A stretch of DNA of 55,279 nucleotides from a virus (lineage: Duplodnaviria; Caudoviricetes), in the IMG/VR virus record IMGVR_UViG_3300019768_000001, positions 1 to 55,279 of that record. One strand, written 5' to 3'. The position numbers were made by a program, and so were the translations under genes. This document shows, piece after piece, positions 17,777-48,883 of this stretch. The first letter of the stretch is position 1; every line of letters starts with the position of its first letter. Below the pieces are notes generated by a model that was not told the origin of the DNA, made no database searches, and saw nothing but the letters and a program-made list of their open reading frames with translations.

Positions 17777-17827
17777 AGATAACACTGCAATCACAGGGCC
17801 GTTCCGCCCTGTATTTCTTTGTTATGT
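17777..17827 (+). mobile_element. attC-like recombination site H (solo)
   Basis: AGATAAC-actgc-AAT(C)ACAGGGC-cgttcc-GCCCTGTATT-tcttt-GTTATGT: R boxes, 5-nt unpaired spacers, bulged C in L''; 44/51 identical to site G. Confidence 0.75.
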
Positions 17828-35349: not shown

Positions 35350-35672
35350 ATCAATCTTTTCCTTCCTTGATTACCACAACAGTTGGCGCTGGAGGCTCAG
35401 GCTTCGCTTTAAATATGAAGTACAAAATAATATTAATCAGGATCAGAGGCGGAAACAGAAACAGCTCAATGATACCGGTAAAAATCAACAACAAATTCCA
35501 TAAAATACGCATCACTTTTCCACCTTTTCAACTGGATTTCTTGCTCGAGGCAATCGCTTGTCTATAAAGTTCATCCATATATCACCAATACACCCAATAA
35601 AAAGAAGAGGCACTATTGGCGCTATAAGAATAAATCTTATAGCCCACCAGCCAACTACGATTTTACCACTGC

Positions 35673-35876
35673 TCATTTTTCCACCATTTCACATTTTGCC
35701 GTGCTTGTTACTGACTCAACACCTAGCAGCCTGGACACATCAACAGAAGGCCAATATAGGAAGTTTTCCGCCACCCTTTGGCATTTATCAAGATCATAGT
35801 AAACGGTCTTGCTGATCGATGGAGAGTTGATATAGCCGGTTAAATTAAGCGTTAGAGTCAGGGCTAGTATTATCAT
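35673..35876 (-). CDS. Small exported/membrane protein
   Basis: Signal-like N-terminus, two Cys; its GAGG RBS lies inside attC-like site D. Confidence 0.5.
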   Translation of the reverse strand: MIILALTLTLNLTGYINSPSISKTVYYDLDKCQRVAENFLYWPSVDVSRLLGVESVTSTAKCEMVEK

Positions 35877-35878
35877 TG

Positions 35879-35929
35879 CAATAACACCTCAATAACATAG
35901 ACCTTCGGCTATGTATTTCTCTGTTATAT
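35879..35929 (+). mobile_element. attC-like site D
   Basis: CAATAAC-acctc-AAT(A)ACATAG(A)CC-ttc-GGCTATGTATT-tctct-GTTATAT; two bulged bases on the L'' arm. Confidence 0.8.
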
Positions 35930-35931
35930 TG

Positions 35932-36057
35932 TTAAAACTCTAACATGGTATATTTTCTGCACTCCCAGAATCCTGGCGGTGTAGTCCAGTCGGCCCAGCG
36001 TCTGCGGACAAAAACTTTAAATTTAACGCCTTTATGTGTTCTGTATACAAGCTCCAT
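35932..36057 (-). CDS. Cassette ORF, 41 aa (MELVYRTHKGVKFKVFVRRRWADW...)
   Basis: Fills the segment between sites C and D; not in track. Confidence 0.45.
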   Translation of the reverse strand: MELVYRTHKGVKFKVFVRRRWADWTTPPGFWECRKYTMLEF

Positions 36058-36068
36058 GACAACCCTAA

Positions 36069-36130
36069 ATATAACAATGCAATCAAACAGATAACTCGTA
36101 ACCTCGTTACTCGTTATCGCCGGGTTATGT
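36069..36130 (+). mobile_element. attC-like site C
   Basis: ATATAAC-aatgc-AATCAAAC...GATAAC/GTTATC and GTAAC/GTTAC inner stems...GTTATGT; L pairing imperfect. Confidence 0.7.
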
Positions 36131-36313
36131 TACCTTTTTAATATTTAGTGTAATTTCCACCAGTTCAGTGTTTTCTCTATCATGCTTGTCTGCTACTTTT
36201 TTTAGGTATCGCCTAGCTGGTGTAGCGCTATCAAATATAAGCATGTTTTGGTTTTCTCCATCAACTCTAATCTGTTTCGTTTTACTATCAATCAGTACAA
36301 ATGAACTTTTCAT
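36125..36313 (-). CDS. Cassette ORF, 62 aa (MKSSFVLIDSK...)
   Basis: GAGG RBS; stop TAA lies within the R box of site C. Confidence 0.55.
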   Translation of the reverse strand: MKSSFVLIDSKTKQIRVDGENQNMLIFDSATPARRYLKKVADKHDRENTELVEITLNIKKVT

Positions 36314-36340
36314 TTTTTTAAGCCTCTTGTGTTTTCGGTA

Positions 36341-36399
36341 ACATAACAAGTAAAATCAAAGCTGACGCGCTACGCTTGAAGTTTATTTGGTGGTTATGC
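36341..36399 (+). mobile_element. attC-like site B
   Basis: ACATAAC-aagtaa-AAT(C)AAAG...GCG-tac/cta-CGC...GTTTATT-tggtg-GTTATGC; resembles site F. Confidence 0.75.
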
Positions 36400-36555
36400 G
36401 CCAAGCTCGGCAATACACCCAAGCAGCACAATTCTAAACAGCTCTGGTTTATCTCTATGCCAGTTGCCTAGTGTTTGTAGGCTTTGTCCTGTTAGCTCAG
36501 ATACTTGCGACAGGCTTTTAAGGCCAGCCGCTTTTGCTTGCTGTGATGGGGTCAT
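36394..36555 (-). CDS. Cassette ORF, 53-aa HTH-like protein (MTPSQQAKAAGLKSLSQVSELTG...)
   Basis: Not in track; ATGA-coupled to upstream ORF; stop in R box of site B; paralog of 18134..18322. Confidence 0.6.
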   Translation of the reverse strand: MTPSQQAKAAGLKSLSQVSELTGQSLQTLGNWHRDKPELFRIVLLGCIAELGA

Positions 36556-36764
36556 AGCAACCCCCGCTTCTCAGCATCTTTTAAAAATTCGTCTTGCTGC
36601 TCGACTGTCATGTGGCCAGCTATAGCAAGCTGCACTAATGCCATTAGGCGGTCGTCTTCCAGCTCACCTGCAAATTCTTTAAACATACCGTTTAGTTTGT
36701 TTGATCTTACTAGGCCGTCATTAATCATTTTATTTTGCTCCGTTGCGTTAGTTAGTAAGTACAT
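36552..36764 (-). CDS. Cassette ORF (likely start 36728, MINDGLVRSN...)
   Basis: GGAG RBS before ATG at 36728. Confidence 0.5.
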   Translation of the reverse strand: MYLLTNATEQNKMINDGLVRSNKLNGMFKEFAGELEDDRLMALVQLAIAGHMTVEQQDEFLKDAEKRGLL

Positions 36765-36829
36765 TGTTACAAACTATTTGCTCCTTGCCTAGTCTTTTTG
36801 CAAATTACTTTAAATTAATTGTAGAAAGC

Positions 36830-36882
36830 GCATAACAAAGCAAGGCAATCGGATGCAAGCACCGTTGCTCGCAAAGATTATT
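36830..36882 (+). mobile_element. attC-like site A (degenerate R')
   Basis: GCATAAC-aaagc-AAGGCAATCGG(A)TGC-aa-GCACCGTTGCTC-gcaaa-GATTATT; shares AACGGTGC..TCCGATT core with site E. Confidence 0.65.
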
Positions 36883-37312
36883 TGCTCTATTTGATGCGCC
36901 GACTATTTACCAATCAGCACATCGAATAAAACGCCCTGCCGCAGGAATCCGGGCCAGACCATGAAAAGAGGAAAAATATCAAAACCCCTTGCCTGCTTGC
37001 ACATTGATTCGGCTCTGTGTGCTCCACTGGAGATTCCGCGCATCATGTAAATCCAATGGACGGCAGCTTCAAAGCTACACAAAGCTAATTATCGCGGACA
37101 TAATGCCAGATCCGCGCCCTGATATAGGGTATTAATGTGACTGTTAGCGCCACCCTCCCCGCTGTGACAATATTGTCGGAAAGGTGACGCTAAGGAATGC
37201 GCTCTGTCGTTCCCATAATTTTATACACAACCACAATGCAATTTATTGAACAAACACACTTTGGTTAATGTTTAAGTTATGGCAAAGCGCATTATTTAGC
37301 GCAACTAACAGT

Positions 37313-37531
37313 CTACGGCAAGCTATCTTCGAGCTCCTTTTTTTCATCTTCGTCTATCAATCCTTTTTCGTACATTTCAACAATAAAACCATTAAACCCG
37401 CTGACAATATTGGTAAAATAACGACTTGAAACATGCGGGCCTAAACAAACCACTACAGGAATAAGAATCGCCGCTAAAATAGCGAATACAGCAAGATTAA
37501 AAAATAACCATGCCCCTATTATATTTTTGAT
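37313..37531 (-). CDS. 72-codon membrane protein ORF with ATC at the start position
   Basis: AAGGAGG RBS, then ATC-AAA-AAT..., TM helix, acidic tail, TAG. Confidence 0.45.
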   Translation of the reverse strand: MKNIIGAWLFFNLAVFAILAAILIPVVVCLGPHVSSRYFTNIVSGFNGFIVEMYEKGLIDEDEKKELEDSLP

Positions 37532-37549
37532 ACCGCCTCCTTGTTTAAT

Positions 37550-37620
37550 TGGCAGCCCTATCAGGAATCGAACCTGAATCGTTACAAATCAGCCACACTG
37601 ATACAGATGACGGCGCTCGT
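37550..37620 (-). ncRNA. tRNA-derived fragment (T arm + acceptor 3' strand + CCA)
   Basis: TCAGG-TTCGATT-CCTGA-TAGGGCT-G-CCA; no recognisable D or anticodon arm. Confidence 0.45.
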
Positions 37621-37732
37621 ACACCGCGAAATAACGACACAACCAGGATGGCAATTGATCTTATATGCTAATTTTTCAGACGAGCATAATTAATGATTGA
37701 TCATTGCCGCCCTATAATGTTCGGGCTTTAAA

Positions 37733-37809
37733 TGGGGCCACAAACGGGACTCGAACCTGCGACCTCTCGCTTAGGAGTCGAGCGTTCTATCCAACTGAAC
37801 TAATAGCGC
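37733..37809 (-). tRNA. tRNA-Arg(CCT)-like, acceptor stem poorly paired (possible pseudo-tRNA)
   Basis: GTTC-AGTTGGATA-GAAC D arm, CTCCTAA anticodon loop, GGTTCGAGTCC T loop, encoded CCA; about 3 acceptor mismatches. Confidence 0.6.
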
Positions 37810-37814
37810 TTAAG

Positions 37815-37888
37815 AGCTGAAGGCCGGATTCGAACCGACGCAATACCAATGCGAACAAAGGCGGGTTTTCCAGTTTCCCCACTTCAGC
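37815..37888 (-). ncRNA. tRNA-like element with aberrant anticodon arm
   Basis: Perfect GCTGAAG/CTTCAGC acceptor, GGG/CCC D stem, GTCGG-TTCGAAT-CCGGC T arm; anticodon stem does not pair; no CCA. Confidence 0.55.
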
Positions 37889-38230
37889 TTAAATTGACCA
37901 GACTCTTCTCAGAGTGTAGAGGAATGTTAGATAACCCCTAACCGGGTAGATTATCACCTCCTTACTTCGCCCCGTGATATTAGAATTAAAACGGTTACAG
38001 CTTTTCGGTTGGCTAAATACAGTAAAATTATGAGGCTGCACCTATCATCTTTTCAGACCTGATGGATAGCCAGGAGTCTTTCCATGTAAGATTTTTGGCG
38101 ACTCTTTAACGTGCTATTTCCTTCCCGTTGCCCTTCACTGTATTGGTGTAGGCACCTGCCAAATTGATCCAGTTAGGAGCGTCCATCAGCAGAAACCTAC
38201 CCAATACACACCGCTTAGCCGGTGAATCTA

Positions 38231-38392
38231 TGCATTAAAAATCAAGCTGAAGACCAAATTCCCAACCGATGATCGCGTCTACCTAATGACGCCTACTCAG
38301 GCTGCAGCCTGCTTATAGCCCACCCCGTCGACTAGGAGGGTGCCAGCGCCATGTATACTCACAACACTGAAAACAGCTTGATTTTTAATGCA
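38231..38392. repeat. 19-bp perfect inverted repeat enclosing a structured interior
   Basis: TGCATTAAAAATCAAGCTG ... CAGCTTGATTTTTAATGCA. Confidence 0.8.
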
Positions 38393-38742
38393 CACTGGTT
38401 ACGCCAGTGAATCGGATTTACTCTTATCTGATTGTGCTTTATTGGCCCGCACTTACCGCCGTAGTGGTCTAACGTTATCCTAACCATATTCAACCTGTTC
38501 AACTGCACCAGGCTTATGAATAGGCATCCAACTTTTTGACATTGGATCAGGTCTTTCTCTATGGCGATTCATACAGGCAAGTTGCAATAAAAATAATAAC
38601 ATCTCACCTTCCTTGTTAAGTCTGCCAGATTAACCGCTGGCAGCTCCGGTTTTGTCGGGTAACTCCGGCAACGAATGGCAACCCGCTGCCTGCAAAACAA
38701 TAATAGCAAATTAATTTAAACAGGTGGTATTAGACGTTGGTA

Positions 38743-38919
38743 TTAGTCCGGCTTAAACCTTTCTTTTCCGGTGCCATCACAGCCGCCACAAGGCGGGCTT
38801 CCATTGTGGTCATAAACACCTGATCCGCTACAAGCAGAACAAGGCCTCAACTTCCATCCCTTTACGTTTTTTTCATAGTATTCAGTACGCCGCTTCTTTC
38901 TCTCTTTGAATGTCGCCAT
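38743..38919 (-). CDS. Small Zn-finger protein (DnaJ-type CxxCxGxG repeats)
   Basis: CSACSGSG...CGGCDGTG. Confidence 0.65.
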   Translation of the reverse strand: MATFKERKKRRTEYYEKNVKGWKLRPCSACSGSGVYDHNGSPPCGGCDGTGKERFKPD

Positions 38920-38920
38920 C

Positions 38921-39388
38921 TCACCACCTCGCCTTATACTGTTCATAAAAATCTAAATACGGCTCTGACCACGTTACGTTATGCTCAACGCCCCATGCGT
39001 ACAGAAACGCTATAAAATCGCCAGCCTCACCTTTTCTAAACTCGGTAGTGCTAGCGCTCATGGTGACAGCCCTTTTGCCGTCTAGGCTTATTACAGTACG
39101 GCTTGGATGGCTTAGTTTCTGACCTTGGTTGTTTATTTCCATTTCAAACTGATCAACCAGCAGCCTTTTCCAGATATCGGCACCGTACTGCCTGCCTTCA
39201 ACCTCAACCTGACCCGCAATATCCCGAAACATCGCGTGGTACTTCTTTTCCATCAGCCGGGATTTCTTAACATCACGAATCAGGATCTCAACAGGCCCGC
39301 CAGTGACGTATGTTTTAACTACCTCCCAAACCTTACCCATCTGAGGCCGTAGATTGTCCAGCGATACCACAATTGTTATCGGCTTCAT
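38921..39388 (-). CDS. ninB: NinB-family recombination protein
   Basis: YHAM..DIA.QV...WK.LL...S.DG..V....STT.F...E..DFI.FLYAWG.E..V.WS. Confidence 0.75.
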   Translation of the reverse strand: MKPITIVVSLDNLRPQMGKVWEVVKTYVTGGPVEILIRDVKKSRLMEKKYHAMFRDIAGQVEVEGRQYGADIWKRLLVDQFEMEINNQGQKLSHPSRTVISLDGKRAVTMSASTTEFRKGEAGDFIAFLYAWGVEHNVTWSEPYLDFYEQYKARW

Positions 39389-39389
39389 A

Positions 39390-39740
39390 TTACCGCCACG
39401 TTCGATAGTTGATCACATCGTCAACAGATTGCACGGCAACACCATTAACGGCAGCCGCGAAAGTTTTTATCTTCCCCGCCCTATAGCCAGCGTCATCTAA
39501 CACTCTCATCATTTCAACATGCTCAGCCGTCAACTTAGCATTTGGATGATTCTCGCCCTGTCGCTTTTTAGTGTTTTTCATGTAGCTTAGCTTTTGGCAT
39601 ACCGAGTTGTAAGACCTCTGTAAAAACTCAGCCATTTCTTTCCTGCTCATCAACGGGTTTTCTTCTAAAAAAGAAACCTCTTCATCGCTCCATATTTTCT
39701 GCGCCATACTCTCACCTATTTTTTGATTATTGTTAGCCAT
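39390..39740 (-). CDS. Small DNA-binding protein
   Basis: WS.EE..FL myb-like start; GENHPNAKLT...RTWR motif. Confidence 0.6.
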   Translation of the reverse strand: MANNNQKIGESMAQKIWSDEEVSFLEENPLMSRKEMAEFLQRSYNSVCQKLSYMKNTKKRQGENHPNAKLTAEHVEMMRVLDDAGYRAGKIKTFAAAVNGVAVQSVDDVINYRTWR

Positions 39741-39770
39741 CCTTGGCAGGTTGTTAATTAGACTTTTTGG

Positions 39771-39992
39771 TTAAGCCTTCTCACCTCTACCGACAAACCA
39801 GTCGATAGCATCACAGATAAGCGGATCTTCCAACCAATTTTCCAGTTCACGATTCATCGCTCTATCCAGATAAACAACAGGGCCGCAGTAGTGGTGCCAC
39901 TCAAGAAACACCCTCCGGCCATCAGCCAGCCTTAACCTGTAATGCATTGAGTTTGTGCAGATAATACCGCCATGAAATACCGTACACGTCAT
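39771..39992 (-). CDS. Hypothetical protein
   Basis: EWH.YCGP motif; RBS. Confidence 0.55.
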   Translation of the reverse strand: MTCTVFHGGIICTNSMHYRLRLADGRRVFLEWHHYCGPVVYLDRAMNRELENWLEDPLICDAIDWFVGRGEKA

Positions 39993-39996
39993 ACTC

Positions 39997-40764
39997 TCAC
40001 CCCTTTAACATTGCTTTCATACGGTCAATTGCGTCTTGACCCTTGATACCTTCAAAACCTTGATCCTTTGCCTGCTTGTTACCGTCGCGGATCATTTTAT
40101 CGGCCATAGCGCGGCCCTGATTGTGCTGTGCGTCGTTTTCTAGCAGAGTCTGGCCGTTAGCCATAGCTTTTGCCAAAGAGTTGTACTCAGTAGCAAAGCG
40201 GGCCTTTACGGTCTTTTGCTCTGACTGGCTTGATGCCCTCGCAATATCGTATGACCCAACTCGTTTTACAGCTTCTCTGATAGCTGGATGACTCCATTTT
40301 CCGGCGCTAGGCATTCCAGCCTTCTTTTGAGCCTCTAAGAACGCCTCGTCAAGAGAAGGAAGTCCAAGCTCTTCTGCATCTACGTCACACAAAGAAACAA
40401 ACTCAGGAATCGTAGGCGGCCACTTAGGATGTCGTCGAATACTTTTCCCTATAGCAACCTGTATTCTATTTCTCTCCTGCTTGCCAATGGCTATCATCCA
40501 GAGAGAGTGCGGGTCTGTCGGCGGCATATCCCCGTGATCCCTGCTCCACTTGTCCCCGTATATCTCCATCATGCGGCCCCAGAACATCTTGGCATTGCTG
40601 GCTACTTCCTGAGAGCATTTGTCGCTCCCATTCGTCAAGTTTGGCTTGCCGTTCTGCATGCTTATCGCCTTGGTGCTGGCTATTGCCGCTCTGCCTATTT
40701 CCGCTGCTGATTTCATCGCTCCACCGCTCCTGATTGAAATATGTTGTCGGGTGCATTTCAGCAA
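39997..40764 (-). CDS. Replication protein P-like helicase loader (likely start MKSAAEI)
   Basis: WPPT.PEF..LC...LGLPS..EA..EA...WSHPA; overlaps initiator gene as in lambda O/P. Confidence 0.75.
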   Translation of the reverse strand: MLKCTRQHISIRSGGAMKSAAEIGRAAIASTKAISMQNGKPNLTNGSDKCSQEVASNAKMFWGRMMEIYGDKWSRDHGDMPPTDPHSLWMIAIGKQERNRIQVAIGKSIRRHPKWPPTIPEFVSLCDVDAEELGLPSLDEAFLEAQKKAGMPSAGKWSHPAIREAVKRVGSYDIARASSQSEQKTVKARFATEYNSLAKAMANGQTLLENDAQHNQGRAMADKMIRDGNKQAKDQGFEGIKGQDAIDRMKAMLKG

Positions 40765-41365
40765 AACCCCTTTGCCCAGACTTCAACCGGGCCTGAACAT
40801 CAATGAATAGTTTTCCAGCAAAGTCCACAGGGTCTAACTTGTTATTCTTTGCGTAAGATTTGAACTTGGCCAAAGCTGGCTTCTTGCCGACTTTCTTCAT
40901 GCCAGCACACCAATAAGTTTCAAATGCTTCAGCGCACACATCATCGAATGATGATGAATTATCTTTATATAACTCTTTGTTATCTTCTTTGTTATATAAG
41001 GGCACTTTATGACCCTTGCCAGATGTCGTTTCCGACCCTTGCGCAAGGGCGCTTTCCGACCCTTGCTGAACAACGTTGTAATACTTAGCTTTATTTACGG
41101 TCATCATCCTTTTTTTCCCGTAATTCGTTACTTTGGTATCCCGAAAAATCCAACCTTTATCGCTAAGCGACTTTAGAACCGACTTAACACGACGCTCAGA
41201 TAAATCAAAAAACTCAGCAAGATACTGATCACTGGCAAAGCACGGGCCTGTTCTTGAAAGAGCATCGATCTCAGCAAGAAATAAAACCTCCTGCTTAGTG
41301 ATCTCCGTTGAGCTCCAAAGCTCTACTGGTATCCAGATTCCTGTAAACCCCCTTTCATCGCTCAT
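40466..41365 (-). CDS. Replication initiator (lambda O-like, N-terminal HTH)
   Basis: FTGIWIP...CFASD.YLA.F; KKVGKK.A...HPTTYFNQERW; internal iterons. Confidence 0.8.
   Translation of the reverse strand: MSDERGFTGIWIPVELWSSTEITKQEVLFLAEIDALSRTGPCFASDQYLAEFFDLSERRVKSVLKSLSDKGWIFRDTKVTNYGKKRMMTVNKAKYYNVVQQGSESALAQGSETTSGKGHKVPLYNKEDNKELYKDNSSSFDDVCAEAFETYWCAGMKKVGKKPALAKFKSYAKNNKLDPVDFAGKLFIDVQARLKSGQRGFAEMHPTTYFNQERWSDEISSGNRQSGNSQHQGDKHAERQAKLDEWERQMLSGSSQQCQDVLGPHDGDIRGQVEQGSRGYAADRPALSLDDSHWQAGEK
41011..41066. repeat. Probable origin iterons
   Basis: GACCCTTGC at 41011, 41034 and 41058 inside the initiator gene, next to an AT-rich tract. Confidence 0.6.
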
Positions 41366-41856
41366 TTCATATGCTCCATTGTGTATTCTGCAAAATGCTC
41401 AATATCCACGTCTTTAAACTTTTTGATATCAAATAAATCAAAATACCTTCTGGCCACGTGAAGAAATCGGCCTTTATTCTCCATGCATAGATAAAAGAAA
41501 TAATTATTTGAAGGCTCACATAACGGGCTATGCGAACACATAGATGCTACAAATGAAGGCCATGGAACAAAGAAGTTTCTTTCTCCAATATAGTTCGCGG
41601 CATCAAGGGCCTCTTGCGGCGAAACGGAAAACATCTCACCATGAACAACCCTATCCTGAAAGAATCGCTTCAGCATGCTCTCCCTTTGTGATGGGTTTGT
41701 TACCTCTAAGCTCCAAAACAATGAGAACGTATAGCCTTTGTAGCACCGCTTTAGCTCTGAAACCCGATCTTCTGGACGCTTTCTTGTGAACCCGATCTTG
41801 CACCAGTTAGGATTTTGATCTACCGATGCTATGTAGATATTTCCGGTAAATATCAT
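41362..41856 (-). CDS. T5orf172/GIY-YIG-type nuclease domain protein
   Basis: GNIYI...KIGFT.K.PE.R..EL...GE.F. Confidence 0.75.
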   Translation of the reverse strand: MIFTGNIYIASVDQNPNWCKIGFTRKRPEDRVSELKRCYKGYTFSLFWSLEVTNPSQRESMLKRFFQDRVVHGEMFSVSPQEALDAANYIGERNFFVPWPSFVASMCSHSPLCEPSNNYFFYLCMENKGRFLHVARRYFDLFDIKKFKDVDIEHFAEYTMEHMK

Positions 41857-41903
41857 ATATAATTACTCGTATGTGTTTTGGCCCGGTTCGCCGGGTTTCT
41901 TTT

Positions 41904-42182
41904 TTATGCAATGCAAATATCTTCAATAAATCCAGATAATCGCTTCATCTCAAAACCAGTCTTCAGCTTGTAATAAATTACAGTTGACTCTCTTCTAGTC
42001 TCGACCATATCCGAGTCACGAAACACCTTTAAATGCTGTGACAAGGAGCTCTGAGACAGCGTAGGAACCAGCTTGTTTATATCCCCTGCCGAAATCTCAC
42101 CCGCATTTTTAATGGCAATAAAAATCTGTCTACGCGCTTTATTCGACATGCATCCGAACATTTTAGATACGTTCATAATCAA
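41904..42182 (-). CDS. ArsR/SmtB-family HTH regulator
   Basis: R..I...LSQSSLSQHLKV.R....V..RRE...IYY.L. Confidence 0.8.
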   Translation of the reverse strand: MIMNVSKMFGCMSNKARRQIFIAIKNAGEISAGDINKLVPTLSQSSLSQHLKVFRDSDMVETRRESTVIYYKLKTGFEMKRLSGFIEDICIA

Positions 42183-42274
42183 CCTCTCCTGTGTTTAAAT
42201 ATACTTTACTAAATATTAATCTATACGTCAAACAAAAACCGGCGCTAACCGGTTTGGGTGTTAGGGTTTTCTGT

Positions 42275-42466
42275 CTACTGCTTTACGCAAACAGCAGTGC
42301 TATACACGTCAATCATATTGCTTTTATTTATCTGCTGCTGCAAAAGCGCAGATCTCGCTGCAAGGCATGACTCATAACTACTGAATCCGTTTATAGATTC
42401 AGTTGATACAGATGCAGGATCACCAAAAACTCTAACTATAACCACTAACACAAGCGCAAAACTCAT
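42275..42466 (-). CDS. Small exported/membrane protein
   Basis: Hydrophobic N-terminus; F.SYESC..A...AVCV motif. Confidence 0.55.
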   Translation of the reverse strand: MSFALVLVVIVRVFGDPASVSTESINGFSSYESCLAARSALLQQQINKSNMIDVYSTAVCVKQ

Positions 42467-42612
42467 AAATCACCACAGTTTCAATTGTTCTTCCCGGTAG
42501 CCGGGCTGTTTGTTTTTCTTTGGTACCCTTACAGGTGAGGGCACCAAATCAGGATCAGCGCCACGCATCCAGTCACGGAACGCGCGGCGTTTCTGCTCAA
42601 GACTTCGCGAAT

Positions 42613-42816
42613 TCAATCTAGAAGCCCTCGCTCTCTTCTCGATTCATGCCAGCCAGCAAGCCACCAGTGGCGTTTGCATAGCTGGGACTTTTCGCGCAAA
42701 TAAGCGCCGTCTCCGACTTTTGAAACCTGATCACCGAACGGGCAAGACTTAATGTCTGCGCCTTCTTCGCTTGCTTGATGGCCTTTGTAGTACGGCTCCG
42801 GGTAATTATTCATCAT
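42613..42816 (-). CDS. Rmf/CrpP-like small protein (start MMNNYPEP)
   Basis: Y.KG.QA...G.....CPF...W.AGW pattern. Confidence 0.5.
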   Translation of the reverse strand: MMNNYPEPYYKGHQASEEGADIKSCPFGDQVSKVGDGAYLREKSQLCKRHWWLAGWHESRRERGLLD

Positions 42817-43072
42817 GAATAGAAATATCCTGTTCATCGATCCGCTTAAGCTCAAGGCGCGCCAAAATTTCATCTGTTCGTTTTTTAATCGCCAGCGCAT
42901 CAGCGTCAGGTTTGCCGGGCTGGCCTTTATGACATTTAACGCAACGGTCAGAAGACAAATAACGGTACAAAGTGTCGCACTTACTGCATTTAACGTTATG
43001 CGCGTACTGGCCTGAAGGTCGAAGGATTGCCGCGTGGAACCGCTGAAAGTCGCTCTAATTAGTAGTTGCCAT
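42806..43072 (-). pseudogene. Zn-finger gene with in-frame TAG at codon 6
   Basis: AAGGTG RBS; MATTN*SDFQRF...CSKCDTLYRYLSSDRCVKC...; stop overlaps next start. Confidence 0.55.
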
Positions 43073-43712
43073 TGTGATCACCTTGAAGTTTTGTTGTTTG
43101 ATTGACTTGCTGAAAGAATAGAGTGATTACAGGGATTAGACCGTAATGCGTCATATGCCTAAACATCATTCCGTTGTAGCCTTTATTGCCTAATGCCGCT
43201 GCACAATAAAAATACGTAGACAGTAACAATAGTATTCCGAATAGAAGCTCTAAACTGTTCATTTTAATTCCTCTGCGTGCTCTTTCCGGTACTTCTCAAA
43301 GGCATTAAAAACCTCTGAAGTGTCTAGCGGCTCATGTATCTCATTACCGTCTGAGTCATAGGCAATAAACTCAATCTCGCCGCCCTCAGCCTCATGATGA
43401 AAGGTTGCAGGAATTACTTTCTCGTAGTGCGTTACTTCTATAGTGAATCCGTTAAATCGAAACATTCTCCACCTCCCCTATAAGCTTCTGAACTTTTTTA
43501 CTAGAAATACTGGTTCTTTTCCCCTTGTACATCACGGTTCCTGTTGACGGCCAATAGTCCATTTTCTTTCCATCAACAAACCGACTCCAGTGGTAAGGAG
43601 TGTGCTTGTCCCACCCTTTACTACATGCGCCTTCAAGTCGATTTTTCTTTTTTTCTTTCCGGTCTTCTTTTAAGGCCTTAAAGGCAAGTGCAATATCTGA
43701 ATCAGAGCTCAT
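43059..43712 (-). CDS. Three coupled early hypothetical genes (43452..43712, 43259..43465, 43059..43262)
   Basis: Overlapping stops/starts; first has DYWPSTG motif. Confidence 0.55.
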
Positions 43713-43763
43713 TTGTTTATCGTCCCGTTGTTTGCGTCCTATTAAATTAACGTAAAATTAAAC

Positions 43764-43800
43764 TTGATGCAACGTTATTTTAACGTTATAGTGACGTTAT
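43764..43800 (+). promoter_or_regulatory. Divergent control region: TTGATG/TATAGT promoter overlapped by three ACGTTAT repeats
   Basis: ACGTTAT at 43772, 43783, 43794 (11-bp period). Confidence 0.55.
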
Positions 43801-43819
43801 CAAATCACGAGGCAGAAAC

Positions 43820-43975
43820 ATGGCTATAAAGAAAAACAACCCGTCCTCTTATATGAATGACGAGCAGCTGAGGCTGGCAACAGAAGCCTCAGTTAAAGAA
43901 GGTAGAAGTCTGTCATCTTTTATTCGTATGGCAGTAGAAGAAAAAACAAACAAGGTGTTAGGGGTGAAAAAATGA
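43820..43975 (+). CDS. Ribbon-helix-helix-like regulator, 51 aa (not in track)
   Basis: GAGG RBS; A..EGRSLSSFIRMAV.E pattern; ATGA overlap with next gene. Confidence 0.65.
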   Translation: MAIKKNNPSSYMNDEQLRLATEASVKEGRSLSSFIRMAVEEKTNKVLGVKK

Positions 43976-44322
43976 GCAGGGCTTACACTGTGTACAAGGG
44001 TGAAATTAAAGGTAGGCTGGTTTACATAGGAACAACAATACAAAAGCCAAGCAATAGATTTAGATGGCATAAAAATAATGGTAAACCATTCGATTTTACT
44101 GTTTTGAGTCAGCATGAAACATCAGAAGAGATGCTAGAAGAAGAGTTAAGGTTGATAAAAAAACACAAGCCAAAATACAACAAGATAAGACACAGAAAGC
44201 AAAATCTAAATGTTAAATTATCAAAGGAGGATCTAGATAAAAGAGTGGGAGATAGCGAGTGGTGTCAAAGCTGCTTAAAGCGTCGAGTAAATAATGGTTA
44301 CTCTAAGTGTTATTACTGTTAA
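43972..44322 (+). CDS. GIY-YIG family nuclease
   Basis: YTVY...VYIGTT....R.RWH...E..LI....PKYN. Confidence 0.7.
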   Translation: MSRAYTVYKGEIKGRLVYIGTTIQKPSNRFRWHKNNGKPFDFTVLSQHETSEEMLEEELRLIKKHKPKYNKIRHRKQNLNVKLSKEDLDKRVGDSEWCQSCLKRRVNNGYSKCYYC

Positions 44323-44334
44323 AAAGGATTAAAA

Positions 44335-45165
44335 ATGAGTCAGTTATTTATTGCAGAGATGAGCAACGAGGAATACCACGGCGGCCATGGTGTTTCAAAA
44401 TCAACATTGGACTTAGTGCATAGAGATCTGTTTGCACCAGAATGGTCTAAGAAGTGCCCGCAAGACAAGGACAAGCTTAAGACTTTGGATTTTGGCGATG
44501 CAATGCACGCAATATGCTTGGAGCCTGACCGTCTAGAATCAGAGTTCGTTGTAATGCCAGCATTCAACCTTAGAGCTAATGACGGCAAGGCATCAAAAAA
44601 GGCGTTTGAAGCCGAGCATGACGGCCATAAGATTCTAACCGCAGACGAACACTTTAAGCTGAAACTGATGTTTGAATCGGTAATGGCGCACCCTCAAGCA
44701 AGACGACTAATTGAGGCCGAAGGTATTGCAGAGGGCTCTTACTTTTGGGATGACGAGCAAACAGGGATCACCTGCAAGTGCCGACCAGATAAGCACATTG
44801 TAAAAGAAGGGCTCCTGGTTGACGTGAAGACTACGCCAGATCTCAAAAAGTTCTGTTACTCGGTAGATGATTACCGCTACCACGTACAAGATCCATGGTA
44901 CTGCGACGGAATAAGCCGGTTTCACGGCGAAACCAGAATGGAATTCCTTGCTATCCAGAAAACAATAGAGCTTGGTAAGTACCCGGTCATGGTTGTAAAG
45001 CTTCCTCAAGAGGCTATTGAATATGGTAGGGCCTTGTACCGAGAAGACTTAAATCGTTACGCTGATTTTATTAATAGCGACAAGCAAGCCGGAACCAAAG
45101 AGCTGGCAATGCATTACAATTTCCTTGATCGGGCATACGAGAAGATAACAGAGGTTGAGCTATGA
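44335..45165 (+). CDS. RecE/Exonuclease VIII-like PD-(D/E)XK nuclease (DUF3799-like)
   Basis: SNEEYH...SKS.L; G.A.H...LEP; CKCRPD...DVKTT; YHVQ..WY. Confidence 0.85.
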   Translation: MSQLFIAEMSNEEYHGGHGVSKSTLDLVHRDLFAPEWSKKCPQDKDKLKTLDFGDAMHAICLEPDRLESEFVVMPAFNLRANDGKASKKAFEAEHDGHKILTADEHFKLKLMFESVMAHPQARRLIEAEGIAEGSYFWDDEQTGITCKCRPDKHIVKEGLLVDVKTTPDLKKFCYSVDDYRYHVQDPWYCDGISRFHGETRMEFLAIQKTIELGKYPVMVVKLPQEAIEYGRALYREDLNRYADFINSDKQAGTKELAMHYNFLDRAYEKITEVEL

Positions 45166-45689
45166 GTGACGTTACAAATCTTGCTGACACGGTAGCACCA
45201 AAAAGCGATCAACTTAATGCTGACGACCTGCTAACAGGGCCAATTACTGTAACCGTTATCGATGTTAAGCGCGGCCCTAAAGATCAGCCTGTCTGGATCG
45301 TGATAGATGGCGGTCGACAGCCATACAAGCCGTGCAAGTCAATGCGTCGCGTAATGATCCAAGCTTGGGGGGCTAATGGTAAGGACTGGGTAGGTCGATC
45401 TATGACCTTGTTCTGTGATCCTAGTGTTAAGTTTGGCGGCGTGGCTCTTGGAGGTATTCGCATCAGTCACATGAGCCATATTACCGGAACGCTTGATATG
45501 ATGCTGACAGTAACAAGAGGCCGTAAAAATCAGTTCAAAGTTCACCCGTTGAAAACTGTTGATTATTCAAAACTGATAGCAGGTTATTCAGCGATGAACC
45601 AAGAAGATAGAAATAAAGCGTGGGCAACATACACGCCAGATCAGCAGATGGCTATCAGTAACGCAATGAACAGTGGAGTAAGCAATTAA
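45162..45689 (+). CDS. Conserved phage protein partnering RecE-like nuclease (putative ssDNA-binding/annealing)
   Basis: PKSDQLNADDL..GP...PYKPCKSMRRV...GGIRISHMSHI family; function inferred from synteny. Confidence 0.6.
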   Translation: MSDVTNLADTVAPKSDQLNADDLLTGPITVTVIDVKRGPKDQPVWIVIDGGRQPYKPCKSMRRVMIQAWGANGKDWVGRSMTLFCDPSVKFGGVALGGIRISHMSHITGTLDMMLTVTRGRKNQFKVHPLKTVDYSKLIAGYSAMNQEDRNKAWATYTPDQQMAISNAMNSGVSN

Positions 45690-45727
45690 TGTCTCGCGGA
45701 ATAAATAAAGTAATTATTGCCGTATAA
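45689..45727 (+). pseudogene. Orphaned ssb 5' remnant (MSRGINKVIIAV*)
   Basis: Matches canonical SSB N-terminus MASRGVNKVIL; GGAG RBS; followed by HNH gene. Confidence 0.7.
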
Positions 45728-45769
45728 TCGTTTTTTCGTTACTATATTTAACATATAGAAGGGGCTTAT

Positions 45770-46273
45770 ATGGATGAATATGATTTATATAACAACGGAA
45801 AAAGCATACCAGAGGTAAGCGATGAGACAGGGATACCAAGATCAACACTGAGATTCAGGTTTAAAAAAGCAGGAATATTAAGGTCTAGGGCTGATGGCAT
45901 TAAAAACGCATCAAAAAACGGTCGATTAGGTTCAGGTCTTAGAGGTAAGAAAAGGGTTTTCACAGAAGAGTGGAAGAATAATATTTCAAAAGGAAAAACC
46001 GGAAAGGGGCTTGGTGTATCTGTAAAGCCTAGTGGATATATAGAGATAACGATGGGAGAAAACAAGGGTAGGTTGGAGCATGTTGTAATAATGGAGTTGA
46101 TAATAGGAAGAAGGCTTGCGTCAAACGAGTGCGTTCATCATAAAGATGAAAACAGGGCCAACAACGACCCTGAAAACCTTCAGTTAATGACAAGAAGCGA
46201 GCATGCATCTTTGCATGCTAAGCAAAATATAAGCAAAAGAAATAGAGATAAGAGAGGTCGTCTTTGTGGCTAA
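45770..46273 (+). CDS. HNH homing endonuclease
   Basis: N-terminal HTH/NUMOD-like; EH.VIME..IGR.L...E.VHHKDE.R.NN..ENL.LMT.SEH..LH. Confidence 0.85.
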   Translation: MDEYDLYNNGKSIPEVSDETGIPRSTLRFRFKKAGILRSRADGIKNASKNGRLGSGLRGKKRVFTEEWKNNISKGKTGKGLGVSVKPSGYIEITMGENKGRLEHVVIMELIIGRRLASNECVHHKDENRANNDPENLQLMTRSEHASLHAKQNISKRNRDKRGRLCG

Positions 46274-46850
46274 CGATTTAAATCAGTGTCAATTTATTGG
46301 ACGTTTAGGGAAAGACCCTGAAACAAAATTTCTTCCAAACGGTGGGCAGGTTACTAACATATCGATAGCCTGCGGAAGCTCTTGGACTGACAAATCGTCT
46401 GGCCAGAAGCAAGAGAAAACCGATTGGATACCAGTGGTTTTTTTTGGAAAACTTGCAGAAATAGCAGGCCAGTACTTAACGAAGGGGTCAAAAATATTTG
46501 TATCCGGTAATTTTAAAACACGCAAATGGCAGGATCAATCTGGCCAGGATCGCTACACAACAGAGATCGTTGTCGATGGCTTTGGCGGTGTAATGCAGAT
46601 GTTGGATAGCAAGAGTGACGGGCAAGGCGGCGGGCAAAATAATGCTCCACCACAACAGGCACCAGCACCAGTACCGGCACCAACGCCACAAAAAGACTAT
46701 GCAGCTGAATACATGGCTATGACCCGCGAACAGCAAACACAGATGTGGCCGAGCTATACCGATGCACAGCGCCAATTGATCACCGACGCTGTAATGTCTC
46801 AGAAACAACCTGAAAGCAATCTGCCTCAGCCAGACGACATACCTTTTTAG
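46266..46850 (+). CDS. ssb: Single-stranded DNA-binding protein
   Basis: IGRLGKDPE...TRKWQDQSGQDRYTTEIV; acidic DDIPF tail. Confidence 0.95.
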   Translation: MANDLNQCQFIGRLGKDPETKFLPNGGQVTNISIACGSSWTDKSSGQKQEKTDWIPVVFFGKLAEIAGQYLTKGSKIFVSGNFKTRKWQDQSGQDRYTTEIVVDGFGGVMQMLDSKSDGQGGGQNNAPPQQAPAPVPAPTPQKDYAAEYMAMTREQQTQMWPSYTDAQRQLITDAVMSQKQPESNLPQPDDIPF

Positions 46851-46968
46851 CAACAGCAGCCCGGCTTCGGTCGGGCGATAGGGTGATTTATGAACAAAAC
46901 ACCAAAGCAGCGCCGTCACTCGCTATTAATGATGGATAACCACCGGAAGAGACTGGAGGCTGAGCGGG

Positions 46969-47595
46969 ATGGGAAACAGCAAAAAACGCTGTAAGCAGTG
47001 CAAGAAATACGTTCCGGCTGAATCTGGAATTAAGGTGCCAGCCGGTTTCTTTTGCTCCCATGATCATGCTATTGAGTTTGCCAAAGCAAAGCAGGCTCAA
47101 TCGTCGCTTAAACAGCGCAAGGAGCGCGAACGCATAAAGTCGATGACTGTTAAGGATTTGGACAGAGAAAGCCTTCCTTGGCAGCACAAGCAGACCCAGA
47201 AGGCTTTTAACAGAATGAGGGTCTTGCAAGAGCTGTATTATTATCAATCGAACGGTCTAGAGCCCGTTTGTATTAGCTGCCAGAAACCGCTAGGCGGTGA
47301 TCAGTGGTGCTGCGGTCATTATAAAACCGTAGGCGCTCACCCAGAGCTGAGGTATGACCCTCTAAACACTCACTTGCAGCATAACCGTAATTGCAATATG
47401 GGATTATCGGGTGACATAAAAGGCTATACGTTCGGGCTCGTTGATCGCCACGGCAAGGACAAAGCTGCAGAGATATACGATTATCTGGCGGTAGATAATG
47501 GGCCAAAAAAATACACTTGTGATGAGCTGGAAAAAAACCGAGCAGAGTACCGAAAAGAAATTAGGCAACTAGAGAAAATTGTAACTATCGTCTAA
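46969..47595 (+). CDS. ninG: NinG/Rap-family recombination nuclease
   Basis: CKQCK...FCS..HA; CISCQ...CCGHYKTVGAHPELR.D..N.H.Q...CN..LSG. Confidence 0.85.
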   Translation: MGNSKKRCKQCKKYVPAESGIKVPAGFFCSHDHAIEFAKAKQAQSSLKQRKERERIKSMTVKDLDRESLPWQHKQTQKAFNRMRVLQELYYYQSNGLEPVCISCQKPLGGDQWCCGHYKTVGAHPELRYDPLNTHLQHNRNCNMGLSGDIKGYTFGLVDRHGKDKAAEIYDYLAVDNGPKKYTCDELEKNRAEYRKEIRQLEKIVTIV

Positions 47596-47657
47596 TACCG
47601 GCCAATCCTGATAACCGGTAAATTACAGATTCAAACAATAGCAAGCAAGGGGATAAC

Positions 47658-47870
47658 ATGAGCAAGATAGCAAGCGTTTACGATAAGAATTCAAAGTCAG
47701 TGATTTTAGATATGCGCCATCCGAACAAAGATGTGCCTAGACCTGAAATTGTGATCGACACAGAAACAGAGAAGTACGCCGTTCCGGGCGGGAAGACATT
47801 TGAGCTGCTTCGAGATGCGCGTGTTGTAGCAACTGAGATGTTTAGTAAGGCGGGTTTTGTTTGCCAGTAA
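47658..47870 (+). CDS. Hypothetical protein
   Basis: RBS; stop TAA lies in the R' box of site E. Confidence 0.5.
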   Translation: MSKIASVYDKNSKSVILDMRHPNKDVPRPEIVIDTETEKYAVPGGKTFELLRDARVVATEMFSKAGFVCQ

Positions 47871-47924
47871 CCATATAAATAAACGGTGCAGCGCAGCAAG
47901 TCCGATTTAATTTGCTTGTTATGC
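47865..47924 (-). mobile_element. attC-like site E
   Basis: Minus: GCATAAC-aagca-AAT(T)AAA(T)CGG...CCGTTTATT-tatatg-GTTACTG. Confidence 0.7.
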
Positions 47925-47946
47925 TGCGAATAGATAGGGGGGGAAT

Positions 47947-48120
47947 ATGGGCGTTAGAATGAAAAAGACAGATCGAGAATGGCACGAGTACCCATTAGGG
48001 ACTAAAGCTCACGCCGTTATGGGTGGTTATTGGGAAAGAGTTAAGGGTGGCTGGAAATGGTGTACAGGTTCTACCTTTCCTACTCCCGGTGCTGACTGGC
48101 GAGTAATAGAATTACCATAG
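47947..48120 (+). CDS. Cassette ORF, 57-aa Trp/Gly-rich protein (MGVRMKKTDREWHEYPLGTKA...)
   Basis: Not in track; G-rich RBS; fills the segment between sites E and F. Confidence 0.55.
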   Translation: MGVRMKKTDREWHEYPLGTKAHAVMGGYWERVKGGWKWCTGSTFPTPGADWRVIELP

Positions 48121-48122
48121 CA

Positions 48123-48182
48123 ACATAACCCCTTAAACAAACGCAGAGCGTAGCGATGTAGCTTTGCTTTAAATTGTTATAT
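48123..48182 (-). mobile_element. attC-like site F
   Basis: Minus: ATATAAC-aattt-AAA(G)CAAA...TTTGTTT-aaggg-GTTATGT; resembles site B. Confidence 0.75.
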
Positions 48183-48194
48183 TACGGAGACATT

Positions 48195-48629
48195 ATGGAT
48201 TACTTAAAACTATTGCAAGAAAGCTACAGAGAAACAGCAGAGAATAGGGATGACCCAACTTTAGAAAAACTAGAGTTCTTGGCTGAGGGTATTTTCGGAT
48301 TCACGACATACGAGAATGTGGTTTCTTCTACGATGGCGCAAAAGGCACTAGAAGTATGCAAGGCGATAAGTGACAAAAAGACATTTGATTACATTGCCAG
48401 TGAAGAGGGAAATCTTTGGTATCTGGTAATGGTTAATATGCCGTTTTTTGAAAACAGGCTTAATTGGGGTACTTCTATTCGTGGTGCTTGGTGGGATCTG
48501 TGGGGCAATAAAGAATTCACCATTGAGAGTTGCGAACTGTTTGGCGGTGAACAGATACTAGAGCTTAAATTGAATGACAGTGAATGGGTTAAGTTTATAG
48601 AAGCTATGATTAAGTTCGCGGAAGAGTAA
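48195..48629 (+). CDS. Cassette ORF, 144-aa hypothetical protein (MDYLKLLQESY...)
   Basis: GGAG RBS just after site F; stop abuts site G; WGTSIRGAW motif. Confidence 0.65.
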   Translation: MDYLKLLQESYRETAENRDDPTLEKLEFLAEGIFGFTTYENVVSSTMAQKALEVCKAISDKKTFDYIASEEGNLWYLVMVNMPFFENRLNWGTSIRGAWWDLWGNKEFTIESCELFGGEQILELKLNDSEWVKFIEAMIKFAEE

Positions 48630-48679
48630 TATAACAAAGAAATACAGGGCGGAACGTCCCTGTTATTGATGTGTTATGC
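48629..48679 (-). mobile_element. attC-like site G
   Basis: Minus: GCATAAC-acatc-AAT(A)ACAGGG(A)CG-ttc-CGCCCTGTATT-tcttt-GTTATAT. Confidence 0.8.
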
Positions 48680-48883
48680 CAAAGTCTAATACCGCACCGA
48701 CTAAGTAAGGCGCACAATAAGAAAAAACGGAGGGTCGAACATGCGCAGAAAGTCAGCGGTAACATCGGTTATCAGGCATAAAATCAAAGACCCTCAAAAA
48801 CTAGCAGATGCGGAAGTGTCAGCCATCAATTATTTAAATCTGGGTGATACAGCTCACCGGGCGATTAAAAAGGCGCTTAATCT

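Follow-up and report, generated by a model that had tools for sequence, protein, structure and literature searches.

The working of integron cassettes is commonly explained by the integrase's choice of strand, which orients promoterless genes correctly behind the Pc promoter. Toxin-antitoxin cassettes that carry their own promoter are often reverse-oriented. Clusters of attC sites lacking an integrase are termed CALINs, and the description of such clusters (Cury et al. 2016, PMC4889954) includes imperfect hairpins with AAC...GTT boxes, an unpaired spacer and bulges on one arm, as well as two or more same-strand sites lying within 4 kb, separated by one or two small ORFs and with intI not nearby. 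In phages, Qi 2023 (PMC9892861) reported attC clusters that lack an integrase and are situated amid small accessory genes: sites of PH101 (Pseudoalteromonas phage H101) and P12002L recombine with IntI1, the strand that the paper itself designates 'bottom' doing so better than the top strand, and the arrays of PH101 and TJE1 are called typical, the words 'antisense' and 'opposite' being absent from the main text. In sedentary chromosomal integrons, toxin-antitoxin cassettes with their own promoters are expressed independently of Pc and form a minority within canonical arrays, and excision increases when bottom strands lie on the lagging-strand template (Richard et al. 2024, PMC13108822, PMC11023631); recombination is likewise raised when the bottom strand is the lagging-strand template (Loot 2017, PMC5371416).

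The window analysed here is the whole of a complete phage record of 55,279 bp. As described for CALINs, it carries four attC-like sites within 1.1 kb on the plus strand and three within 0.8 kb on the minus strand, sharing the imperfect hairpins, boxes, spacer and one-arm bulges listed above. As in the phage CALINs of Qi 2023, these integrase-less sites lie among small accessory genes; in contrast to them, the window sites are shorter, belong to another sequence family and were found only in metagenome phages. Unlike natural arrays, those of the window are phage-borne and come as two sets that mirror each other on either side of a divergent control region. The window shares Pc-independent expression with the toxin-antitoxin cassettes, its array probably being expressed through read-through from phage promoters, but here the entire array is reversed.

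attC-like elements of the phage genome

Eight imperfect palindromes of 50–73 nt with the outer boxes ATAAC...GTTAT were found between small ORFs (Table 1), four of them in the leftward early arm (35879–36900), three in the rightward arm (47865–48679) and a solitary one at 17777. With 11 occurrences, the pattern ATAAC-N25-55-GTTAT is well above the 1.8 expected, and 0 of 100 shuffles reached that number. The initial annotation had counted eight elements between 35879 and 48679; seven of these were found, the fifth of its left-hand elements was not identified with confidence, and the eighth element of our set (17777) lies outside that interval. Both outer boxes (AAC at the 5' and GTT at the 3' end of the top strand) are present in seven of the eight, the exception being 36830, which lacks the GTT box, and ATAAC/GTTAT is conserved although stems and loops are otherwise unrelated between elements. 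No recombinase gene was found in the 55,279-bp window: TIGR02249 and PF00589 gave no match across the whole genome, nor did PF00589, PF00239 or PF01797 in four related phage records.

Table 1. Position, strand and main properties of the attC-like elements and neighbouring features. Scores are bits of the covariance model R2 on the plus (+) or minus (-) strand.
Feature	Coordinates	Strand	Remarks
attC-like element, short type	17777..17827	top +	Between minus-strand genes of the structural region; single C bulge on AAC arm; tip TTC, GAA on bottom strand; R2 + 19.8, - 18.6 (marginal, 1.2 bits apart)
attC-like element, short type (H of the initial annotation)	35879..35929	top +	Strand from geometry: 6-bp R box, 4x4 spacer, short stem, single-base bulge (AAC arm), further stem; second single-base bulge parsed by hand, 1x1 loop in the fold; R2 + 4.8, - 6.0 (no strand preference)
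attC-like element	36069..36130	top +	AAC arm 9 nt longer; R2 + 15.7; an inner sub-hairpin scores 8.2 on -
attC-like element	36341..36399	top +	CTACG loop motif in top orientation; bulge arms ambiguous in MFE fold; R2 + 16.7, - 6.3
Degenerate attC-like element	36830..36900	top +	Outer 3' box not GTT; arm asymmetry 0; R2 + 6.2 only, at 36830–36883 (weak)
attC-like element	47865..47924	top -	Two single-T bulges on AAC arm; GGAC in top orientation; R2 - 16.9
attC-like element, best match to natural attC	48123..48182	top -	CTACG motif; fold with 5-6-bp stem, G bulge, then 3-bp stem; R2 - 25.6 (E 0.0015), no + match listed at E ≤ 10
attC-like element, short type	48629..48679	top -	Two A bulges on AAC arm; GAA at bottom-strand tip; R2 - 19.0, + 11.4
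Six small ORFs beside or between left-arm elements	35673–35876, 35932–36057, 36125–36349, 36394–36555, 36552–36764, 36903–37082	-	
Four small ORFs beside or between right-arm elements	47658–47870, 47947–48120, 48174–48629, 48741–48887	+	
Replication-initiator gene	40466..41365	-	phrog_270, 1.6e-31; iteron-like direct repeats (D15) inside, about 40968–41080
Divergent control region between early arms	43720..43830		Three AACGTTAT repeats (direct reading); GC skew changes sign here

Strand assignment of the elements

For strand calls, a covariance model (R1) was built from nine attC sites of one integron, with the orientation taken from its intI. When 12 further integron arrays were searched, 10 gave matches, and 41 of the 41 non-training matches (E ≤ 0.1) lay on the strand predicted from intI. 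The resulting 50 natural attC sites, all from one bacterial order, made up model R2, which was built for the present analysis. R2 matched six of the eight window elements, all of them antisense to the local genes, with E-values of 0.0015–0.3 (81 kb, both strands) that are modest and come from a rough calibration. A candidate for the fifth left-hand element of the initial annotation, at 42959–42999, has the ATAAC/GTTAT boxes but no R2 match and an ambiguous fold.

The same polarity was obtained with other criteria. Extrahelical bases mark the AAC arm of the attC top strand (Nivina 2016, PMC5027507), and constrained DNA folds placed an excess of unpaired bases on this arm, read on the top strand of the initial annotation, in seven of the eight elements, with zero for 36830 and negative values for none. 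The rule was checked on the 50 natural sites, where the excess was positive in 30, negative in 5 and zero in 15. Asymmetry in such crude folds is noisy, being negative for three of the four strongly scored H101 sites and zero for the fourth. Clean single-base bulges are present in 17777, 35879, 47865, 48123 and 48629, and in 36069 the surplus on this arm is larger. Among the natural sites, GGAC occurs in 45 of 50 top strands but in just 4 of the 50 bottom strands, while CTACG was seen in 12 top strands and no bottom strand; one or the other motif was found in top orientation in four of the eight window elements, and in bottom orientation in none. The three short elements carry GAA at the bottom-strand tip, and purines make up 33 of their 39 unpaired bases when these are read on that strand (11 of 13 in 35879), in agreement with bottom strands as described by Nivina 2016 (PMC5027507). 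Phage sense strands are purine-rich, which could bias the purine criterion and the weak R2 scores towards antisense calls without any integrase.

Gene strand and proposed mechanism

Codon log-likelihoods were positive for all six minus-strand ORFs of the left arm (+2.4 to +20.5) and negative for all five plus-strand alternatives; in the right arm, the four plus-strand ORFs were positive (+2.8 to +47.8) and the five minus-strand alternatives negative. In line with this, 48174–48629 (plus) matches phrog_18399 (8e-39), 36394–36555 (minus) matches phrog_409, a transcriptional regulator (2.5e-6), and 17829–18074 (minus), the neighbour of the 17777 element, matches phrog_7772 (9e-9). The attC bottom strand carries the longest ORF in all five window segments and in nine of nine inter-site segments when relatives are counted, as opposed to 5 of 35 cassettes (one tie) of natural integrons (Fisher p = 2.8e-6). 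The window segments thus depart from the canonical cassette, in which the ORF occupies the attC top strand and its attC comes after it. Read in the direction of transcription, an ORF stop is followed within about 8 nt by a site and, after a further 3–65 nt, by the next ORF; three of the stops coincide with the TAA of the box where an integrase would cut, and direct reading of the sequence places the stop of ORF 36125–36349 (minus) in the outer box of 36069–36130. The initial annotation had proposed that all cassette ORFs are antisense to canonical attC polarity, and six R2 strand calls, the bulge arm, the loop motifs, codon usage and the PHROG matches agree on this; comparison of the R2 strand calls with gene strand likewise bears out its claim that the recombinogenic bottom strand is the mRNA-like strand.

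An orientation that follows transcription in both arms and at 17777, together with the intergenic position of all elements, would also be expected of hairpins that act in RNA as processing, stability or attenuation signals in early mRNAs, their likeness to attC being convergent. The purine-rich spacer (GAGG) of 35879, which in the window and in the related phage G001 alike lies 8–10 nt upstream of the following start codon, fits such a role, and phage intrinsic terminators and processing hairpins are similarly short, intergenic and fixed in orientation relative to transcription. The elements differ from these, however, in lacking a sense-strand U-run and in having conserved outer boxes and one-arm bulges. 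A scan for Rho-independent terminators, defined as G+C-rich hairpins with a T-run behind them on the transcribed strand, flagged only 48644–48663, within the 48629 element and antisense to the genes, plus a weak plus-strand site in the same element. Retention of ATAAC/GTTAT despite unrelated stems and loops points to a protein that reads the boxes, the elements were found with a model trained solely on natural DNA attC sites, the natural loop motifs GGAC and CTACG are present, and IntI1 reportedly recombines sites of H101 and P12002L, which share this arrangement (Qi 2023, PMC9892861). We regard a function in RNA as improbable.

The elements are most likely integrase-less attC arrays in which the recombinogenic strand is the sense strand. 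Our preferred explanation, to which we assign a probability of roughly 0.55, is that they are integron-type attC sites with reversed polarity, forming two CALINs and the solitary site 17777, and are shuffled by a host integrase. The two arrays would occupy the accessory-gene stretches of two divergent early operons, and the recombinogenic bottom strand, which is the one with the extrahelical bases opposite the AAC triplet, would be the sense strand of the phage genes. The reversed polarity implies that a cassette excised by an integrase would consist of a site and the ORF downstream of it. During infection, an SOS-induced host integron integrase may recombine the sites, so that small accessory genes could be shuffled among co-infecting phages. 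The initiator gene and its repeats suggest an origin of replication at 40466–41365. With forks leaving such a central origin, the reversal would keep the bottom strand both non-template strand and lagging-strand template, on which single-stranded folding should be easiest, and the genes would stay co-directional with phage transcription. Transcription and the presumed bidirectional replication run in the same direction in both arms, so the two causes are inseparable here. By its geometry, a phage cassette that inserts at a host attI would point towards the Pc promoter, and silencing of phage genes behind a host Pc would be a logical consequence of this arrangement; a canonical host cassette entering a phage array would conversely lie antisense to phage transcription.

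Reversed arrays in other phages

R2 matched two elements in the relative G001, three in G002 (E 0.0005–0.018) and two in L045; the inversion is present in G001 and G002 as well as in a metagenome contig. A search of 185,579 species genomes for the exact short-type pattern found none. Among four published phage attC clusters searched with R2, three showed reversed polarity: Pseudoalteromonas phage H101 has four plus-strand matches (33–41 bits) among minus-strand CDS, Polaribacter phage P12002L one plus-strand match (20.1 bits) flanked by two minus-strand methyltransferase genes (PHROG 7e-77 and 2e-55), and Myoviridae sp. MW202573 two minus-strand matches (34.8 and 18.6 bits) among plus-strand CDS. 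The fourth, Tetrasphaera phage TJE1, has the canonical arrangement. PF00589 gave no match in H101, P12002L or TJE1. The suggestion of the initial annotation that this is a distinct, selected class was supported in part: the inversion is mirrored in the divergent arms and recurs in unrelated phages, which fits a distinct class, whereas selection for it is conjectural. As TJE1 shows, the inversion is not universal.

The recurrence in three unrelated published phages, G002 and L045 bears on the view that the elements are inert attC relics, each array having been acquired once and inherited, with its antisense polarity a historical accident rather than a product of selection. Common descent of polarity within an array does reduce the observations to at most a few independent events, 36830 is degenerate, and neither an integrase nor a host integron could be linked to the phage. 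Yet the polarity is mirrored in two arms and a distant solitary site, the cassettes enclosed by like sites differ between the window and G001, and structural preservation is good, five of the eight elements retaining clean boxes and bulges. An origin as relics is unlikely on this evidence.

Taken further, the preferred reading of recombining attC sites would mean that many phages keep a pool of reverse-polarity cassettes (site upstream, bottom strand as sense strand) that host integrases shuffle in the course of infection, and that reversal is the rule of phage attC arrays, set by which strand becomes single-stranded as phage DNA is replicated and transcribed and acting as a one-way expression barrier between the cassette pools of phage and host. 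We put this forward tentatively, and as a rule it is doubtful. What the comparison provides is several unrelated phages in which gene-to-site polarity is reversed throughout the array, and for two of these phages others have shown that sites recombine with IntI1. If this holds, phages would constitute a separate cassette reservoir that standard pipelines would annotate as ordinary CALINs, access to single-stranded DNA, rather than Pc, would set the polarity of phage sites, and phage arrays would offer a direct test of how replication or transcription feeds integron recombination.

Possible exchange at element boundaries

Comparison with relatives suggested exchange at the elements. A 49/49 identical copy of the 35879 element is located, inverted, in the opposite arm of G001 with unrelated flanks; as neither flank is shared, movement of a simple 'site + ORF' unit is not seen here. 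Other contigs of the same metagenomes contain like elements between unrelated flanks, those like 47865 in runs X1 and X3 and those like 48123 in runs X2 and X3. Of the four points at which the window's homology to G001 breaks off, three lie no more than 4 nt from the edge of an element; two adjoin the R'' end, which is not an integrase cleavage point, and homology picks up again at 48679.

Another exchange process, in which integron integrases had no share, could leave such junctions, for example a XerCD-type host recombinase acting on folded DNA, short homologous recombination (phage RecE-like protein, SSB, NinG/Rap) or palindromic mobile elements. The phage has exonuclease VIII-like and NinG/Rap genes, and 46266–46850 reads as a putative SSB from its sequence, without a family call; the identical 49-nt element between unrelated flanks, the breakpoints at element edges, R'' end included, and the elements with foreign flanks in the same community all suit this process. 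A mobile element is less well matched by the 49-nt copy, at which no target-site duplication is visible, and a search for a Y1 transposase found none. The anatomy and motifs are specifically attC-like, and homologous recombination alone does not explain why bulges are conserved on one arm. We regard such a process as unlikely. Within the window, the degenerate element 36830–36900 resembles 47865–47924 of the opposite arm in inverted orientation (repeat I20).

Phage genome and attC-like elements

At 55,279 bp, with ends that overlap by 123 nt, the window covers an entire virus record. It encodes a portal protein, a major head protein and the large terminase; the plus strand also carries a NinG/Rap gene and another that is exonuclease VIII-like. 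Its early genes diverge: the leftward set begins near 43720 and the rightward set near 43820, and the GC skew switches sign at the control region between them. Imperfect palindromes of 50–73 nt lie between small ORFs toward the distal ends of both early arms and on one strand, the top strand, start with ATAAC(A) and finish with GTTAT or GTTAC; this box pair is enriched in the window (11 matches against 1.8 expected). Three short elements (17777, 35879 and 48629) form a close family: an outer stem of 6 bp is followed by an unpaired 4x4 spacer, a stem of 3–4 bp, a single bulged base and a stem of 5–7 bp, and a small loop closes the hairpin. Only the computed fold of 48629 contains a further single-base bulge and a triloop-closed stem of 2 bp; in 17777 and 35879 this layout was parsed by hand and is absent from the computed folds. 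On the bottom strand, the proposed recombinogenic strand, the short elements carry a GAA tip and have purines at 33 of 39 unpaired positions. A MAFFT alignment of 14 phage elements left the 3' arms unaligned, and no third covariance model was built.

Elements of the window and the replication-initiator gene, with scores of the R2 covariance model (elements: top strand)
Feature	Position	Strand	R2 result or remark
Element	35879–35929	+	+ 4.8 vs − 6.0 bits; strand call unsettled
Element	36069–36130	+	+ 15.7 vs − 8.2 bits (− match is an inner sub-hairpin)
Element	36341–36399	+	+ 16.7 vs − 6.3 bits
Element	36830–36900	+	6.2 bits
Element	47865–47924	−	− 16.9 bits; no + match listed
Element	48123–48182	−	− 25.6 bits, E 0.0015; no + match listed
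Element	48629–48679	−	− 19.0 vs + 11.4 bits
Element, structural region	17777–17827	+	+ 19.8 vs − 18.6 bits
Replication-initiator gene	40466–41365	−	internal repeats

Canonical polarity measured in natural attC arrays

Covariance models took over from palindrome scanners, which were too noisy for detecting sites. A portal protein search of genome contigs gave a single match (36% identity) in an Oleispira MAG; this MAG was used to obtain natural attC sites and not to assign a host. This marine Oleispira genome carries an integron integrase, and the adjoining array yielded nine attC sites, whose top strand was set by the side of intI and from which a first model, R1, was built. R1 was then applied to 12 more arrays from this genome's bacterial order, the intI of each array giving its orientation. 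All 41 non-training matches at E <= 0.1 fell on the intI-predicted strand, with matches in 10 of the 12 arrays. The second model, R2, was built from 50 natural sites of a single bacterial order. Of 35 cassettes in these natural arrays, counted without four site pairs more than 1.5 kb apart, 29 had the longest ORF between neighbouring sites on the top strand, 5 had it on the bottom strand and 1 was a tie, which makes canonical polarity a measured quantity here. In the order of the Oleispira MAG (L017, G004:C81), integron integrases scored above the curated cut-off in 106 of 201 sampled genomes, which is a very high frequency.

The elements are antisense to their genes

R2 was run with filters off on the window and 26 kb of a related phage record, G001. 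It matched six of the eight window elements, each on the top strand assigned by the initial annotation, and left 36830 and 35879 without a settled strand. Two further weak matches were not counted as elements: 40967–40997 (12.5 bits), probably spurious and located among the iteron-like repeats of the replication gene, and 38594–38621 (9.7 bits). According to Nivina et al. 2016 (PMC5027507), the top-strand AAC arm carries the extrahelical bases, and in constrained folds seven of eight window elements had their unpaired excess on the AAC arm, and no element had it on the opposite arm. The same measure applied to natural sites gave 30 on the AAC arm, 5 on the other arm and 15 at zero, and it is unreliable for long loops, as the sites of phage H101 (three of four negative, one of four zero) have R2 scores of 33–41 bits. 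Loop motifs gave the same orientation: GGAC occurs in 45 of 50 natural top strands vs 4 of 50 bottom strands, CTACG in 12 top strands vs no bottom strand, and one or other motif is in top orientation in four window elements and in bottom orientation in none. The purine skew of the short elements matches a bottom-strand skew described in the same paper by Nivina et al. (PMC5027507). Because phage sense strands are purine-rich overall, this skew criterion and the weak model scores could be biased; such a bias cannot shift a bulge between arms.

The strand of the genes was assessed by codon usage, with a model that had 20 long phage ORFs as its training set. It preferred the minus frame in each of the six ORFs of the left arm and the plus frame in each of the four of the right arm, and it scored against all ten opposite-strand alternatives. 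PHROG matches support 48174–48629 (+), 36394–36555 (−) and 17829–18074 (−). In a test identical to that used for natural arrays, the longer ORF was on the bottom strand in five of five window segments, and in nine of nine when segments from G001 (1), from a second related phage record, G002 (2), and from a metagenome contig, L045 (1), were added. The difference from natural cassettes (5 of 35) has a Fisher p of 2.8e-6, with fewer than nine independent events behind it because arrays are inherited as blocks. The claim of the initial annotation that the cassette ORFs at 35879–48679 are antisense to canonical attC polarity is confirmed.

Read along the transcript, every ORF stops at, or shortly before, the box whose bottom strand an integrase would cut; for 36125–36349, 36394–36555 and 47658–47870 the TAA of this box is the stop codon. 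Between an element and the start codon downstream of it are 3–65 nt. Excision by cuts at AA|C would therefore yield a cassette made up of an element and its downstream ORF. A less probable explanation of the hairpins is a role as RNA. At 48644–48663 (−), antisense to the genes, a hairpin is followed by a T-rich tail and resembles a terminator, so the three short elements could also hinder antisense transcription.

Reversed polarity in published phage attC clusters

Clusters of attC sites lacking an integrase (CALINs) have been reported in phages by Qi et al. 2023 (PMC9892861), who found that IntI1 recombines sites of TJE1, P12002L and PH101, bottom strands better than top strands. R2 was run on the four phages named in Figure 2 of that paper. 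Three proved reversed: H101 (four matches, +, 33–41 bits; genes on the minus strand), P12002L (one match, +, 20.1 bits; two minus-strand DNA methyltransferases) and MW202573 (two matches, −, 34.8 and 18.6 bits; genes on the plus strand). TJE1 was canonical (three matches, +, 14.3–25.2 bits; plus-strand orf1–3). The main text of Qi et al. 2023 (PMC9892861) terms the PH101 and TJE1 arrays typical and does not contain the words 'antisense' or 'opposite'; a literature search for reversed attC polarity in phages found no such paper. The arrays of the window are read as phage CALINs of reversed gene-to-site polarity, a variation on a type already known. A blastn search with the H101 CALIN returned H101 itself only.

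Recurrence in relatives and microbial mats

G001 is a mosaic relative of 55,858 bp. From its SSB-like gene to the shared right-hand backbone it has different ORFs with like elements between them, in the same polarity. Its copy of 35879–35929 is identical at 49 of 49 positions, lies in the opposite arm between unrelated flanks and is inverted, and is likewise antisense to its genes. G002 gave three R2 matches on the plus strand between minus-strand ORFs. Elements like 47865 and 48123 were found between unrelated flanks in contigs of three microbial-mat runs; in three of these contexts, when the strand reading the bottom strand is followed, the element precedes a ribosome site of GGAG type and an ATG. 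Around the two arrays, three of four homology breakpoints between the window and G001 lie no more than 4 nt from the edge of an element. Of these three, two adjoin the end that integrase does not cut. An exchange mechanism of another kind is a less probable explanation of the elements. No contig of the three runs, when compared with 35000–49500, joins across a single cassette, so an excision junction was not observed; since contigs drop rare variants, this counts in neither direction.

Other shared stretches were also seen. At 36506–36556 and 49035–49067, 33–51 nt are common to other short contigs of one metagenome run (X1) with unrelated flanks; these are not attC-like, and the sharing of short stretches in this community therefore has another cause in some cases. 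The block 45684–46627, which takes in ORF 45770–46273 and the first part of the SSB-like gene, is 99.5% identical to G001 vs 73–96% in neighbouring shared blocks. Judged from its sequence, the ORF is HNH-endonuclease-like, and the block has the look of a homing-type module that was exchanged recently.

Database searches returned little else: megablast of 35000–49500 against isolate phages gave no match, blastn of 47860–48690 gave three short chance-level matches only, and a search for relatives with the 106-aa ORF 49074–49394 returned G001 alone. The exact short-type pattern had 0 matches in 185,579 species genomes, and no host integron with such sites was found there. That the elements are inert relics is less probable than their use by an integrase.

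Proposed use of the elements and genome control regions

No integron integrase, tyrosine or serine recombinase or Y1 transposase was detectable in the window, and the relatives sharing the pattern (G001–G003) gave no matches to tyrosine recombinases, serine recombinases or Y1 transposases. The elements have attC-like anatomy, are reversed relative to their genes and recur in other phages; most probably a host integron integrase would use them during infection. The reading of the inversion as a distinct, selected class is partly supported: polarity and recurrence fit a distinct class, and both selection and use by an integrase are conjectural. Reversal puts the bottom strand on the non-template strand and, for forks that leave the likely central origin, would also put it on the lagging-strand template. 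Folding and excision are raised when the bottom strand is on the lagging-strand template (Loot et al. 2017, PMC5371416; Richard et al. 2024, PMC13108822, PMC11023631), and large chromosomal integrons keep their bottom strands on the leading-strand template (PMC5371416, PMC13108822, PMC11023631). Transcription and inferred replication are co-directional everywhere in this genome, which makes their effects inseparable here.

Within the replication-initiator gene, at 40968–41080, the iteron-like sequence AAGGGC.CTTT..GACCCTTGC is directly repeated, its two copies standing 47 nt apart, and ATAAC/GTTAT words occur as well; this region is the likely origin. The divergent control region contains three AACGTTAT repeats (43770–43800), followed by a small ORF beginning at 43820; they look like the operator set of a repressor-controlled switch, though an integrase is absent. 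An exact 123-nt direct repeat ends both the window (1–123 and 55157–55279) and G001; rather than a physical terminal repeat, it may be an overlap left by the assembly of a genome that is circular or circularly permuted. Two adjoining Rfam tRNA matches (37736–37809 and 37815–37888, −; 38 and 35.7 bits), neither called by ARAGORN, share a T-arm-like GGAATCGAACCTG repeat with a third stretch (37544–37576). The region 37544–37888 is conserved in part in G001, and its stretches may be tRNA genes of the phage that are degenerate or of an unusual kind.
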